A stretch of 64,000 bases of DNA from an uncultured Gammaproteobacteria bacterium (GTDB taxonomy: Bacteria > Pseudomonadota > Gammaproteobacteria > SZUA-229): the NCBI GenBank assembly GCA_963759005.1, contig CAVWXQ010000005.1, forward strand, positions 14,546-78,545. Reading direction: 5' to 3'. Made by a program: the position numbers and the translations under genes. This document shows positions 10,166 through 53,400 of this stretch, piece after piece (positions within the stretch are counted from its first letter, which is position 1; each line of letters opens with the position of its first letter). The notes beneath the pieces are model-generated. The model saw only the letters and a list, made by a program, of their open reading frames with translations. It did no database searches and was not told the origin of the DNA.

Positions 10166-10186
10166 GTTTTATTTTTTTGGCTTTAA

Positions 10187-10565
10187 CCCGGATATTTCAT
10201 AGGAATGCAGACAATGGGAACATGTTTTATAAAATCAGTCAGTGAGTCAGTTTGTACGATTCGCCGATAAAATCGTAGGAACGATTTTACATGAGCGAAG
10301 CGAGCCCGTAGGGTGAAGGGCAGGAAGCCCGTAATTAAAGCATAGCCGTTCGGCACATCGCTTCGCTGCTCCATGCATTGCCCTACTACCGTACTTCCTG
10401 TACATAAGCTATGGTTACAGGGGAATCGTACAAAATGGCCGCTGATATTTTTCCAAAAGCTGCATAGCGTTATCGGGTACATAGTGTACTTTCTAATATA
10501 CCTGAATTTCATATTACAATCATAGTGTTAAGCGAGATTAGCAAGGTTCCTATGAAATATCCGGG
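10187..10565. mobile_element. MITE family 2 copy A (379 bp, perfect 23-bp TIR TTAACCCGGATATTTCATAGGAA, flanked by TTAA at 10183-10186 and 10566-10569)
   Basis: Perfect terminal inverted repeats with TTAA on both sides. Internal hairpins (GAGCGAAGCGA/TCGCTTCGCTGCTC). Related copies at 30447 and 45290. Confidence 0.75.
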
Positions 10566-11153
10566 TTAATGAAGGCGGAGATGCGGATAATTGTAAGGAT
10601 AATAGTAAGGATAATACATCGGATAATAGGGGCCGTACATCCACGGGTAAGGTGGATAATCGAGATATGACTGTTCCGGTTCAGGGGGCCATAAGTAATA
10701 GTGATCTACCTGAATAACCGGATATTCATAGAGAAATTCTCCCACCTTGAGATTGTCAGCTCTGAGTACCTGTCCCGTTACTGTAATTTTGCGCTCCGCA
10801 CTATACACCTGCGGTTCCACGAATTCATCTATGATGGCGATAAATCGCCCCGGACTTTGATCAGAGCTCAGCGGTTTACCATTTTCACTTAAAGGAAACG
10901 CAATAATTGTCAGCACACTGGCATTTTGTTTGTTCTCCGTGTGAAGAATAGCGCCACCCCAGCGTACTTTTTGAGACAGGTAGGAGCCTGTCTGATGACG
11001 TACCTGTGCAACGCCGGGGCTGCCGTCCAGTGGTTGCTTTATTTCAGGCGGGATGTGTGAGCTACAGGCAGACAGCAGCACAATAACCGCAAGTCTGCCA
11101 AAAAAAGTTATCGATTTAAAAAATATCACTCCAGTTAGAAAAAACCAAGGCAT
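10566..11153 (-). CDS. Slp-family lipoprotein paralog with Tyr/Pro-rich C-terminal tail
   Basis: Lipobox LLSAC. A WGGAIL...GRFIA core is followed by YPPYPWMYGPYYPMYYPYYYPYNYP. Its stop TAA is the TTAA flanking the MITE. Confidence 0.65.
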   Translation of the reverse strand: MPWFFLTGVIFFKSITFFGRLAVIVLLSACSSHIPPEIKQPLDGSPGVAQVRHQTGSYLSQKVRWGGAILHTENKQNASVLTIIAFPLSENGKPLSSDQSPGRFIAIIDEFVEPQVYSAERKITVTGQVLRADNLKVGEFLYEYPVIQVDHYYLWPPEPEQSYLDYPPYPWMYGPYYPMYYPYYYPYNYPHLRLH

Positions 11154-17566: not shown

Positions 17567-17837
17567 CTAGTACTCTATCAACCTGATAATGACGGATGCA
17601 GTTGGTCTGTCAGCGTTCAGGGCAAGGCACGCCTCGCAGCAAATGGCCTTAGTCCTTTGCAAGAGGTGTAACGATGCCATGGACGTTGACAGACCAACCC
17701 TTCGGGCATCGCTGTGGTGTCTCGCCACTGCGTTACAGCACTTGACAAGGACTATGGCCATTGCCTACGTACTGTGCCTTGTTGCGAAACACCACAACGA
17801 TGCTGCATCCGTCATTATCAGGTTGATAGAGTACTAG
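17567..17837. mobile_element. MITE family 1 copy 1 (approx. 265-bp nested palindrome, ends TACTCTATCAACCTGATAATGACGG.TGCAG, CTAG on both sides)
   Basis: There are three near-identical copies in the window (here, 25728 and 47657). A 35-bp TIR encloses a second internal inverted repeat. The ORFs inside are mirror artefacts. Confidence 0.8.
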
Positions 17838-24600: not shown

Positions 24601-25731
24601 ATGAATAAAGTGATGTTAGTAACAGCAGTATCTTCAATCGTAGTGTTGTCAGGCTGTGCATCTACAGGTGAAACAGGCGCAAACATTCAGAAAGAATACG
24701 AAGCTGAACTTAATGCCCGTAACCAGCAAATTGAACAATTAAAACAGAAGCTGGATGAAAGCCAGAAAGTGGCAGCCTCATCCAGAAGTACACCTACAAG
24801 CGCATCTGCCAGCATGGAAACACAGCAAGCGACGAATACTAGTACAACTTTCAATAATAACCTGTTGCCACCAAATGCCAAGGCTGGTCAATGTTTTGCT
24901 CGCGTTTACACACCGCCCACCTACCGAACAGAAAGCGAAAGTGTACTTAAAGCTGATGGTTATGATGTGGTAACAATCATACCTGCTGTTTATGGTACTG
25001 AAAAACAAACGGTAATGACTGCAGAAGCAACGGAAGCTCTCGAAGTCATCCCGGCGGTTTATGGCTGGAAAGAAGAACAGGTATTAGTCAGTCCTGAAAT
25101 CACTGAATTACAACGTGTGCCAGCAAAATATGGCTTCGAAGAAGAAAAACTTCTAGTTAAACCTGCACACTCCATATGGAAAAAAGGCACCGGCCCTATC
25201 ACAAAAGTAAACCAGAGCACTGGTGAAATCATGTGCCTGGTTGAAGTACCGGCTGTTTATGAAACCGTTAAAAAACGAGTTCTACTAACACCTGAAACCA
25301 CCAAACTGGTTGTCGTTAAAGCGGCAGTTTACAAAACGGTCAAAACACGCGTTGTTGAGCAGCCTGCCAGAACGGTTAGCAAAGAAATCCCTGCAAAATA
25401 CGACACTGTAGAGGTGAAAAAGCTGCTTAAAGAGTCAACCACAACATCGGTTAGTGTTCCTCCTGTATATGAAACAGTGAAAACCACCATTAATGTCGCT
25501 GATGGCTTCCTTGAGTGGACACCGATTCTGTGCGAAACCAATGTTACTGGTGACATTATTCGTCAGCTTCAGCAATCATTGAATGATAAAAACTATAACG
25601 CTGGTCCAGTCGATGGTGTTTATGGTTGGCAGACTACTGCTGCAGTTCGCAAATACCAGAGAGATAATAAGATGCCTGGTGACGGTCAGTTGACGATTGC
25701 ACTGGTTGAATCTTTGAATCTTAAATACTAG
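24601..25731 (+). CDS. Lipoprotein with 7 tandem approx. 20-aa repeats (PAVYxTxKxxVL) and C-terminal peptidoglycan-binding (PG_binding_1-like) domain
   Basis: Lipobox VLSGC. Repeats PAVYGTEKQTV / PAVYGWKEEQV / PAKYGFEEEKL / PAVYETVKKRV / AAVYKTVKTRV / PAKYDTVEVKK / PPVYETVKTTI. C-terminal NYNAGPVDGVYGWQTTAAVRKYQ. The stop TAG lies in the CTAG target of the adjacent MITE. Confidence 0.65.
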   Translation: MNKVMLVTAVSSIVVLSGCASTGETGANIQKEYEAELNARNQQIEQLKQKLDESQKVAASSRSTPTSASASMETQQATNTSTTFNNNLLPPNAKAGQCFARVYTPPTYRTESESVLKADGYDVVTIIPAVYGTEKQTVMTAEATEALEVIPAVYGWKEEQVLVSPEITELQRVPAKYGFEEEKLLVKPAHSIWKKGTGPITKVNQSTGEIMCLVEVPAVYETVKKRVLLTPETTKLVVVKAAVYKTVKTRVVEQPARTVSKEIPAKYDTVEVKKLLKESTTTSVSVPPVYETVKTTINVADGFLEWTPILCETNVTGDIIRQLQQSLNDKNYNAGPVDGVYGWQTTAAVRKYQRDNKMPGDGQLTIALVESLNLKY

Positions 25732-26007
25732 TACTCTATCAGCCTGATAATGACGGATGCAGCATCGTTGTGGTGTTTCAGCAACAAGGCACAGTACGTA
25801 GGCAATGGCCATAGTCCTTGTCAAGTGCTGTAACGCAGTGGCGAGGACACCGACAGCGATGCCCTGAAGGGTATGGTCTGTCAACATCCATGGCACTGCG
25901 TTACACCTCTTGCAAAGGACTAAGGCCATTTGCTGCGAGGCGTGCCTTGCCGCTGAAACGCTGACAGACCAACTGCATCCGTCATTATCAGGTTGATAGA
26001 GTACTAG
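25728..26007. mobile_element. MITE family 1 copy 2 (inverted internal orientation), CTAG flanks
   Basis: The sequence is near-identical to the copies at 17567 and 47657. Confidence 0.8.
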
Positions 26008-30386: not shown

Positions 30387-30446
30387 AGGTGTACATCCTC
30401 TTCCAGGACTGATTAAAAGTAACAAATTGCAGTCTATCTTTTTTAA

Positions 30447-30775
30447 CCCGGATATTTCATAGGTACGCTGTCAATATAGCTTAACACTATGTTTATAATT
30501 AGAAATACAGGAATATTAGAAAACTACACCATATACCCGATACCGCTCGGCACAACGCTACGCTCATATAAAATCGTTCCTACGATTTTATCGGCGAATC
30601 GTACAAACGACCGCCACGGATGGCGGAAGTGTCGATTTTGCATCGTTACATTGATGTAACTTATTAGGGCAATGCAGGAGCTATTGCCGAGGAGCATCAC
30701 ATCGACCTGACTCACTGCCGATTTTTAAAAAAACATAGCCCCAACTACTGCATTCCTATGAAGTATTCGAGTTCA
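30447..30775. mobile_element. MITE family 2 copy B (left TIR intact, right TIR degenerate), 60 bp upstream of the tal start
   Basis: TTAACCCGGATATTTCATAGG at 30443. Internal homology to copy A (cgattttatcggcgaatcgtac). The right end ttcctatgaagtattcgagttca is degenerate. Confidence 0.65.
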
Positions 30776-45289: not shown

Positions 45290-45344
45290 TAATTAACACA
45301 ATAGTGTTAAGTTGATTTTTCAGTATTCCTATGAAATATCCGGG
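45290..45344. mobile_element. Solo end fragment of MITE family 2 (TTCCTATGAAATATCCGGG + TTAA)
   Basis: Perfect right-TIR copy plus an internal catagtgttaag block. No partner TIR. Confidence 0.6.
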
Positions 45345-45351
45345 TTAATTC

Positions 45352-47128: not shown

Positions 47129-47656
47129 GGTTCGTCCTCTTTAATTATTGTTTAGTCAGTGAGAATAGCAGATTGACCACTAAAATACGGCGAAATCGAA
47201 GATAGACCACGAGTTAAATTACAAAAAAGAATAACCGTGATCTTCTTCTGTTGGTTGCTGATGATTATAGGGAAAAAACGGTGGTCTATCATTGATTGTA
47301 TCAATAATGATAAGACTCACGGGCAAGAAAACCTGAAGCCGCATTTTTCGATGTGCGAGATAATGTCTGCATCACTTTAAACGGTATCACTTCAAATGCG
47401 TGATCCTGCTTTATATCCGACATCATACTTAGCCATAAATGCGTCGTCATTTGTGCATCGGCCAGCGCTCTATGGAAGGTACCATCATTGGGCAAGGTTT
47501 TGTATTTAACCAGGGTACCCAGTTTATGATTGGGTGCATCAGGATAAACCCGCCGGGATATCAGCATAGAACAGGCAAACGGCCCATGCTGATTACGCTT
47601 AACACGGTTAAGCTCTGAACCAGGAAAGCGAGAATCAAATGACGCATTGTGTGCTA

Positions 47657-47927
47657 CTTGTACTCTATCAACCTGATAATGACGGGTGCAGTTGGTCTGT
47701 CAACGTTCAGGGTAAGGCACGCCTCGCAGCAAATGGCCTTAGTCCTTTGCAAGAGGTGTAACGATGCCATGGACGTTGACAGACCAACCCTTCGGGCATC
47801 GCTGTGGTGTCTCGCCACTGCGTTACAGCACTTGACAAGGACTATGGCCATTGCCTGCGTACTGTGCCTTGTTGCGAAACACCACAGCGATGCTGCACCC
47901 GTCATTATCAGGATGATAGAGTACTAG
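47657..47927. mobile_element. MITE family 1 copy 3 inserted in-phase (267 bp including the CTAG duplication) in the exonuclease gene
   Basis: Flanks gcta-CTtG[...]CTAG-atta. The ancestral gctaCTAGatta encodes ...YNLVAH.... The element carries a TAA in the gene frame at 47823-25 on the minus strand. Confidence 0.8.
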
Positions 47928-47992
47928 ATTATAATCCTCGATAAAATCAGCAAATGCCAGCATCACTTCCTCACAGGGCGCCGCCTTGTTAA

Positions 47993-48318
47993 GGGCACCT
48001 CTATTAATTGCTTGTGCCCTCTGGCTTTACGACCAGTTCAGAATCAAGACGTGCTTTTGAAGCCATGCCCACAGTTAATACACATGGGCCTGTCGAAAAA
48101 GCGCAACGCAGAGTCTGGGCTGGTCGTAAAGCCCCGTAGGGCGCAGCCTGAAGCATGCATCTGCTCGGCAATTGCTCCTGCATTGCCCTACTACCGTCCT
48201 TCCATGGACATATGCGTTGTGAGCCTTGAGAATGGAATAACCATTCTGCTGCGGCTCACGCCTTGCAGCTACACGCTTCAGGTCACGCAGAGGACATAAG
48301 CAATTAATAGAGGTGCCC
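47993..48318. mobile_element. MITE family 3 (326 bp; 21-bp TIR GGGCACCTCTATTAATTGCTT, TTAA duplication) in the exonuclease gene
   Basis: TTAA lies on both sides (47989-92 and 48319-22). It shares an internal 60-70 bp core (..gcattgccctactaccgt..) with MITE family 2. Confidence 0.7.
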
Positions 48319-48549
48319 TTAAGCATCTTATTGGTAATGCCCGTATAGTTCTCAATGAAGGCACTTATGCGCTTATGAGGATTCATCAACTGTTGAAAAC
48401 GATCAACTAATTCACCGTTCACTAATTTCACCGCACCTATTTCAATGGCACGATCACCGTAATCAGGCGACAGACCTGTGGTTTCAAAATCCAGGACAAT
48501 AACCGTATCGGCAGTTGAATTTATATCAATCATTTTTATATTTTATGAA

Positions 48550-49552
48550 TTAACGATATAGCACAATACGGTAATGCGCATTGCCGTTTCTTAATCGTGT
48601 GATCGCTTCATTTATGTTATCGAAGCTAAATTTTTCGATAACGGGTTTGATGTCGTGGAGTCGGGCAAACTCAAGCATTTTAGTAATTGTGGCAGGACTG
48701 CCTACCGGGGAGCCAGAGATAGAACGTTGATTCATAATGAGTGAAAACACATTGATATCCAGCGGTTCTAATGTCGCACCAACAAAATGTAATCGCCCGC
48801 GAGCATGCAGCGTGCTGAGATACAAGTTCCAGTCCAGCTTAACGTTGACCGTAGAAATAATCAGATCAAAGCTGCCGACTGCCGCTTCTATGTCATTCTG
48901 ATCGCGGGAATTTAATGTATGGTGAGCGCCCAGATTCAAGCGCTTCATTTTTTTTCGCTTCACTGGAAGTAAAAGCCGTCACTTCACAACCCCATGCTTT
49001 AAGAAACTGCAGCGCCATGTGGCCAAGACCGCCGATGCCAATAACCGCCACTTTGTCTGTAGGTTTGATATCAAACTGAACCAGGGGATTAAACACAGTG
49101 ATGCCACCGCAAAACAGCGGGCCGGCAGATTCCAGATCCATACCTTCTGGAATCGGCACCACACTATTTGCCTGCGCGCGCACCTTGTCGGCAAAACCCC
49201 CATGATGACCAAGGATAGTGGGCTGTGAAGTAGCGCAAAGGTTATGGTCACCGCTGCGACAAAGCGCGCACTCGTTGCAGTAACCTGCATGCCAGCCCAG
49301 CCCCACGACCTGACCCATAGTGAAATGTTTAACCTGGTCACCGATTTTAGCAATCTTGCCGACTACTTCATGCCCGGGCACAACAGGGTACTGGGTCATG
49401 CCCCAGTCATTATCAATAACACTCAAATCACTGTGACAAATACCCGAGTAGAGAACATCAATCTCAACCTCATTATCTTTTAATTCACCCGGATCATACT
49501 CAAAGGGTTTAAGCGTACCCTTAGGTTCAAACGCTGCAAAGGCTTTTATCAT
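48550..49552 (-). pseudogene. Zn-dependent NADP alcohol dehydrogenase (YahK/cinnamyl-ADH-like) with frameshift near 48965
   Basis: ORF 48893..49552 carries the GHEVVGKI Zn site and GIGGLGHMA Rossmann. The C-terminal 110 aa (LGAHHTLNSRDQND...) continue in the +1 frame (ORF 48550..48963). Confidence 0.6.
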
Positions 49553-49954: not shown

Positions 49955-50095
49955 GTCCCGTTAACTGCCAGAGACATGAATTGGGCATATCCAGCAATGA
50001 CCATCACCCGCATGGATGCGGGTGTTGAGTCACCATGGATGGTTTCACGGCGCGTCATTGCTGGGTGTGACGGATTCATGTCTCGATTGTAACTA
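49955..50095 (+). repeat. Repeat family 4 copy 1 (approx. 140 bp, imperfect TIR GTTAACTGCCAGAGACATGAAT / ATTCATGTCTCGATTGTAAC, internal hairpin CACCCGCA-tgga-TGCGGGTG)
   Basis: A conserved approx. 75-nt block is shared with 53290..53400. It is about 130 nt upstream of the ompA-lipoprotein gene. Confidence 0.5.
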
Positions 50096-53289: not shown

Positions 53290-53400
53290 ATCCTCACTGC
53301 AGTCCCGTTAACTGAGAGACATGAATCGGACAGATTTATCAACGATCATCACCCGTACGCAGGCCTTGAGCCGCTATGGGTGACAGGTAATCTCTTGTTA
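53290..53400 (+). repeat. Repeat family 4 copy 2 (conserved 5' block TCACTGCAGTCCCGTTAACTGAGAGACATGAATCGG...CATCACCCG, divergent 3' part)
   Basis: About 85% identical to 49940-50010 over the first 75 nt. Confidence 0.45.

Follow-up and report, generated by a model that had tools for sequence, protein, structure and literature searches.

One DEDDh exonuclease gene interrupted by two different MITEs in an uncultured marine gammaproteobacterial lineage

Two different MITEs lying side by side within one small bacterial gene raise the question of whether that gene had ceased to matter before the second element arrived, or whether the site itself attracts insertions. Such a locus is found in a 64-kb stretch of DNA from an uncultured gammaproteobacterium (the window, whose numbering is used here unless another contig is named), and an earlier note made from the letters alone had read it as a single DEDDh exonuclease gene broken by two different MITEs, a reading that the present analysis bears out. 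The interrupted gene extends over positions 47301-48533 of the minus strand, where, from 48533 down to 47301, an ATG start and the Exo I motif VLDFETTGL are followed by two interruptions that leave three pieces. The 5' piece (48319-48533, minus strand, nucleotides 1-215 after reconstruction) bears Exo I and, at its end, the TTAA target of the element that we call family 3; it is 96.9% identical in nucleotides to the intact allele of contig L132. The middle piece (47924-47988, minus strand, nucleotides 216-280) terminates with the intact CTAG copy of the target of the other element, family 1, and the 3' piece (47301-47656, minus strand) carries Exo II, Exo III and the stop codon. The two MITE bodies are separated by 69 bp, of which 65 bp are unique gene sequence, a spacing slightly shorter than the 70 bp first reported.

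Removing each MITE body together with one copy of its flanking target yields an open reading frame of 636 nt, corresponding to 211 codons and a stop; the 212 aa proposed earlier had counted the stop codon as a residue. The encoded 211-aa protein combines Exo I (DxE; D15 and E17 in VLDFETTGL), Exo II (D; D101 in NASFD, within NLVAHNASFD) and Exo III (Hx4D; H155 and D160 in HRALADA, within HRALADAQMT) in a single domain, as in DEDDh exonucleases, and the three motifs quoted in the earlier note were thus all recovered. A database search returned thousands of homologues, mostly of 209-213 aa, and the alignment of the rebuilt protein that the note had proposed gave 90% amino acid identity over 100% of the length of the intact 211-aa homologue P0001, without gaps at the junctions. 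Likewise, neither junction was gapped in a protein alignment of 12 sequences, in which 100 columns were invariant. Since the excised reading frame aligns without gaps to intact orthologues whose gene order matches that of the window, the three pieces belong to a single DEDDh exonuclease gene. The inserts add 267 bp (family 1) and 330 bp (family 3), and both lengths are multiples of 3, as had been pointed out; each nonetheless introduces stops in the frame of the gene, three for family 1 and two for family 3. With stops in each insert and no fragment carrying all three Exo motifs, no active enzyme is expected, in agreement with the initial description of the gene as dead or split.

Both inserts are true MITEs, since they display terminal inverted repeats, target-site duplications when compared with the empty site, many dispersed copies elsewhere and no coding capacity. 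Their bodies are small (263 and 326 bp) and without a transposase gene, their internal open reading frames do not exceed 95 aa, and both form long branched hairpins that are much more stable than the folds of shuffled sequence (z-scores -13.3 and -11.5). An autonomous element with the same ends was seen for family 3 (contigs L011 and L083) and was not found for family 1. Other kinds of insert were considered and rejected: inteins or in-frame MITE-encoded peptides are incompatible with the in-frame stops (two and three) and with the empty orthologous sites, and a comparison of the whole window with Rfam at the gathering threshold yielded no group I or group II intron and no other RNA family, while a permissive search (E up to 10) of positions 47200-48700 returned only two chance-level matches, none of them credible.

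The family 1 body (47661-47923, 263 bp) has ends of the form TACTCTATCA(A/T)CCTGATAATGACGG and two internal stem-loops, and its 35-nt terminal inverted repeats (47657-47691 and 47893-47927) are 94% complementary. The intact target copy reads CTAG on the plus strand (47924-47927), whereas the second, degenerate copy reads CTTG on the plus strand, i.e. CAAG on the gene strand (47657-47660). Relative to the empty site CTGG, the interrupted gene thus shows CTAG and CAAG, a net gain of 4 bp by an imperfect duplication. The CTAG duplication announced in the earlier note therefore holds as a duplication and fails as a perfect one, the gene strand reading CTAG and then CAAG. The same applies to the proposed excision of 47661-47927, which designated the right element with shifted boundaries: it would leave N-Q-V at the junction, and the motif NLVAHNASFD is restored only by removing 47657-47923. 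The family 1 site is the one and only CTAG of the exonuclease gene, and judging from the aligned alleles the pre-insertion site would most simply have been CTAG, derived in this lineage from CTGG by a synonymous CTG to CTA substitution.

Two further copies of family 1 occur in the window, an intergenic one at 17571-17833 with CTAG at both flanks, and a third at 25732-26003 (25728-26007 with its flanks), also bordered by CTAG on both sides and located within a CTAG that holds the TAG stop of the open reading frame 24601-25731. Matches to the family 1 ends amount to 6 in the window (0.00 expected in shuffled sequence), and a genome scan extended the dispersal of the family from these three copies to 4 contigs from three other MAGs, assigned to other uncultured Gammaproteobacteria and to Thiotrichaceae. 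Contig L003 bears a solo family 1 end only, beside an unrelated gene. Among all the ends seen, the flanking tetranucleotide was mostly CTAG, with single occurrences of TTAG, CTAA, CTTA and CAAG. IS630-type elements duplicate the TA inside CTAG; because the family 1 body is bordered by an invariant G at its left and an invariant C at its right, the duplication could involve either the four base pairs, as in IS5, or the central TA of CTAG alone, as in IS630. No autonomous partner of family 1 was detected by the genome scan, whose 4 contigs were devoid of transposase, by a scan of viral contigs or by blastn against plasmids.

The family 3 body (47993-48318, 326 bp) has ends GGGCACCTCTATTAATTGC and forms a long branched hairpin, with 35-nt terminal inverted repeats (47989-48023 and 48288-48322) that are 94% complementary. 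Perfect TTAA copies stand on both sides (47989-47992 and 48319-48322) where orthologues have a single TTAA, ATGCTTAACAAGG, so that the TTAA duplication described earlier stands unchanged. Its ends were matched twice in the window (0.02 expected in shuffled sequence), so that chance is excluded here as it is for family 1. The 19-nt end was present on at least 120 metagenome contigs, frequently at their termini, a position typical of repeats. Paired copies (n = 18) measured 159-326 bp, apart from two of about 1.3 kb; matching 4-bp flanks were observed for 14 of the 18 pairs, with varied sequences (duplications of TTAA, TAAA, TATA, ATAA, GTAA, TAGA, TTTA and ATCA), and TTAA accounted for 75 of about 140 flanks. 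These matched and varied flanks demonstrate that family 3 makes a 4-bp duplication with a preference for TTAA.

The larger elements with family 3 ends (1.26-1.31 kb), complete on L011 (267-1522) and L083 (4162-5468), encode a transposase of 346-363 aa with DDE_Tnp_1 (6.8e-21) and DUF772 (9e-20) domains, i.e. of the IS5-family type, and related transposases were identified on three more contigs (L023, L053 and L119). The contigs L011 and L083 have a G+C content of 50-56%, compared with 43% in the window, and probably derive from different hosts. No match to an IS5-type transposase was obtained in the window by tblastn. Since family 3 carries the ends of an IS5-family transposon, it was presumably moved in trans by an IS5-family transposase. 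The copy in the exonuclease gene exceeds the common 264-bp form by an additional 48-nt hairpin module. This module (about 48-55 nt, GGCAATTGCTCCTGCATTGCC...), which lies at 48161-48215 in the interior of family 3, recurs in a copy of a further family, family 2 (30640-30694), and thereby suggests nested or modular small elements.

IS5 is reported to duplicate a Py-T-A-Pu tetranucleotide, most often CTAG, with TTAA among its known sites (PMC5493358). An IS5-family source, as judged from a DDE transposase combined with a 4-bp duplication, was found for family 3 only, which resembles IS5-family elements in its 4-bp duplications and in the 19-nt ends that it shares with the DDE_Tnp_1/DUF772 elements, and departs from the strict YTAR target of IS5 through its A/T-rich targets (TTAA, TAAA, TTTA, TATA). 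The flanks of family 1, with CTAG far ahead of TTAG, CTAA, CTTA and CAAG, are in turn similar to the IS5 target list of the same study (PMC5493358). Both MITE families differ from full IS5 elements, with no transposase in the window and no autonomous partner found for family 1.

Other small elements and compositional features were observed in the window. Family 2, with ends AACCCGGATATTTCATAGGAA preceded by TTAA, occurs between genes at 10185-10567, 30445-30773 and 45326-45346, twice as a full copy and once as a solo end. The spacer between the genes for OmpA and a Zn-dependent alcohol dehydrogenase (ADH), which is about 236 bp longer in the window than in L132, holds a palindromic element at 49970-50084 (about 115 bp, ends GAGACATGAAT), and a related half-copy is located at 53315-53364. 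The tetranucleotide CTAG occurs 63 times where base composition predicts about 240, a four-fold deficit; CTAA and TTAG are scarce too, and TTAA is at expectation. Only 76% of the window is taken up by open reading frames of 100 aa or more.

What the interrupted gene encodes bears on whether its loss matters. Pfam RNase_T covers residues 12-166 of the rebuilt protein (4.2e-33), and the Exo I-III motifs with their DEDDh residues liken it to DnaQ and PolC-type DEDDh domains (RNase_T; PDB 2p1j, 1j53). Its best solved relative is the PolC-type exonuclease domain 2p1j (6e-26), followed by the epsilon subunit at about 1e-15. By contrast with a true dnaQ product, this stand-alone protein of 211 aa scores below the equivalog cut-offs, with 105.1 bits for TIGR01406 (cut-off 222.7) and 94.3 for NF004316 (cut-off 196); more generally it falls below the cut-off of every named NCBIfam equivalog and passes only a broad 'dnaq' subfamily domain model. 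A replicative dnaQ, encoding the epsilon subunit of DNA polymerase III, was accordingly rejected (105 vs 222.7 bits), and on these profile scores the gene is best predicted to be a PolC-exo-like stand-alone paralogue and not the replicative proofreading subunit. No second dnaQ or paralogue was found by tblastn within the 64-kb window. A role in defence was also discarded, the PADLOC matches being to the generic DEDDh domain only and the neighbouring genes encoding ADH, Band_7, NfeD and OmpA.

The comparison of the locus across strains, which the earlier note had also proposed, revealed intact alleles with empty sites. Contigs of five assemblies, found through a 90% cluster (L132, L133 and L135-L137), bear an intact exonuclease allele with 96.4% nucleotide identity, in which the two insertion sites are empty and read CTTAAC and CTGG; in the longer ones (L132, L133 and L135), the gene order OmpA-ADH-exonuclease-Band_7-NfeD is the same as in the window. 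The orthologues on L001 and L002 also align through both junctions, with a single TTAA, ATGCTTAACAAGG, and with AATCTGGTA at the other site. In total, seven orthologous alleles have a single TTAA at the family 3 site.

Contigs from five assemblies (L127-L131) represent a strain about 94-96% identical to the window, in which family 1 occupies the identical position with the identical CAAG flank. Given this shared position and shared degenerate flank, family 1 represents one old inherited insertion, and its junction with the 3' piece recurs in these five independent assemblies. Upstream of family 1 (the counterpart of window position 47928 onward), the sequences of L127 (1-2640) and L130 (1-231), two contigs that are identical downstream of the MITE, differ from each other and are unrelated to the window, while L128, L129 and L131 break off inside the MITE or at its edge. 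The divergent upstream DNA of L127 and L130 is probably due to repeat-induced misjoining, a MITE-mediated rearrangement being the alternative. Because their upstream parts stop or run into unrelated DNA, L127-L131 are uninformative on family 3, the insertion of which was seen only in the contig under study; the open reading frame that begins at the start of the gene and extends into family 3 likewise forms a singleton cluster. A further allele, on L134 (ENA ERZ25073484, 1-617, 617 bp, 2.2x coverage), has internal deletions of 16 bp and 130 bp in the exonuclease, the latter covering both MITE insertion sites, and is either an independent null allele or a deletion of a MITE-bearing one.

The adjacent ADH gene (48550-49552, minus strand), which encodes an intact protein of 333 aa in L132 and L133, is in the window broken in two by a +1 indel, so that the locus has a second pseudogene. 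Its two open reading frames are of 219 aa and 137 aa, the window reading CTTGAATCTGG and the intact L132 CTTAGTCTGG, and the indel lies outside a nearby A8 run. The orthologous family 1 copies (window 47657-47927, L127 2641-2907) differ at 4 of 267 positions (1.5%), whereas every flanking segment differs by 4.1-4.5% between the window and L127. Simple vertical descent does not explain this discrepancy, for which recombination between strains, gene conversion among MITEs or the collapse of repeat reads into a consensus are possible causes; the low divergence of the MITE would fit a movement of MITE-bearing alleles between strains by recombination.

Signs of decay in the rebuilt gene are slight. 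Based on few substitutions, dN/dS was 0.31-0.46 in comparisons involving the window allele vs 0.18-0.21 between intact alleles, and for the 3' piece the window lineage has accumulated 6 non-synonymous and 4 synonymous changes, compared with 1 and 3 in the sister allele, all small counts. Among 119 homologues, 89 columns show a conservation of 97% or more, and at these the window protein departs only once (L105P), which is within the range of intact proteins. A candidate damaging change, E162Q, was dismissed, because P0160 and P0162, both intact alleles, share it. The conservation of the rebuilt protein implies that decay is very recent or that selection has not been fully lost; the inactivation itself is recent. 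An allele tree built from 308 nt contained too few differences to order the events. Elsewhere in the window, the other located MITE sites (2 of family 1 and 3 of family 2) are all intergenic (5/5), which indicates that insertions into live genes are normally purged.

The locus very probably records a dispensable paralogue that was killed by one MITE, the second insertion going into DNA that was already dead. Of the two explanations offered in the earlier note, dispensability is favoured because the protein falls below the dnaQ cut-off, MITEs elsewhere in the window are intergenic, different lesions are present in other strains and the adjacent ADH is broken. In the order of events that we infer, the sole CTAG of the gene would have arisen by a synonymous CTG to CTA substitution, and family 1 would have inserted there and inactivated the gene; family 3, with its perfect TTAA duplication, would have landed later in a gene that was already dead, at no cost. 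Family 1 is probably the older event, as one of its target copies has mutated to CAAG and its insertion is shared with a related strain. After this first kill, lineage-specific secondary damage would have accumulated, here in the form of the second MITE.

The other explanation, a local hot spot in which target or structural preferences of the transposases, and not lost selection, account for the two hits, is less favoured and rather unlikely, although target-site preference may have contributed. Family 1 did use the single CTAG of the gene, a tetranucleotide that is rare in the window (63 vs about 240), family 3 has a strong preference for TTAA, the tetranucleotide at 75 of about 140 flanks, and IS5 hot spots tied to DNA structure have been documented (PMC5493358). 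However, the gene contains five TTAA, and the one beside family 1 has no obvious claim over the others; in addition, no second allele with an independent insertion was found at either site, the shared family 1 copy counting as one event. About seven MITE sites placed at random in 64 kb would give only an estimated 0.05 pairs within 70 bp, a figure in favour of a hot spot, yet close pairs become several times likelier if insertions are tolerated in no more than about a quarter of the window (ORF coverage 66-76%). The avoidance of genes by the other MITEs of the window argues against a hot spot as well, and the independent lesions that involve no MITE, in L134 and in the adjacent ADH, point to relaxed selection.

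The preserved frame invites the thought that the gene is still usable, through precise excision or RNA-level removal acting as a reversible switch, or as a split enzyme. Neither insert shifts the frame or removes a catalytic residue, the conservation of the rebuilt protein matches that of its intact homologues, and reversible IS5 insertion and excision have been reported for E. coli fucAO (PMC5493358). We consider this highly improbable in view of the in-frame stops and of the lack of any intron family match at gathering or permissive threshold. The Exo I, II and III motifs of what is a single-domain fold are moreover divided among separate pieces; owing to the degenerate CAAG, excision of family 1 might fail to bring back the original codon, and the insertion persists across diverged strains. 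A more specific version, in which precise excision by a transposase re-activates a proofreading-like exonuclease, perhaps in a subset of chromosome copies or cells, is equally hard to credit; if true, such a reversible off-state could modulate mutation or recombination rate. Least believable of all is an assembly artefact, in which repeat copies were misplaced into an intact gene during metagenome assembly. Related short-read contigs do break at family 1 (L128, L129, L131) or misjoin through it (L127, L130), but consecutive parts of the gene on both sides together with target duplications are not created by misassembly, and the junction between family 1 and the 3' piece was obtained in five independent assemblies.

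Genes interrupted by MITEs are well known, including in giant sulfur bacteria (PMC4853749), and the target choice of IS5-type elements is well described (PMC5493358). The closest precedent is hupL of Candidatus Thiomargarita nelsonii, a gene interrupted by a MITE with 10-bp direct repeats and 19-bp inverted repeats (Flood et al. 2016, PMC4853749). As in that case, structured hairpin families spread through the genome interrupt a protein-coding gene in an uncultured gammaproteobacterium, and relatives of the window locus are labelled Thiotrichaceae or Gammaproteobacteria, the hupL case being from a giant sulfur bacterium. The present locus differs in that the MITE families are different, that two unrelated ones share a single gene and that intact alleles of sister strains allow exact reconstruction.

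What is new here amounts to two MITE families and one more pseudogene made by MITEs, and no concept is changed. For annotation, the three ORF fragments belong together as one pseudogene, and the elements are also of use for bacterial MITE catalogues. Killing of the exonuclease by one MITE, with a second following into dead DNA, as we favour, makes this locus a fully reconstructed case of MITE inactivation in an uncultured marine gammaproteobacterial lineage, for which public metagenomes contain intact, MITE-bearing and deleted alleles alike, and in which the dead gene would serve as a permissive landing site for further insertions.
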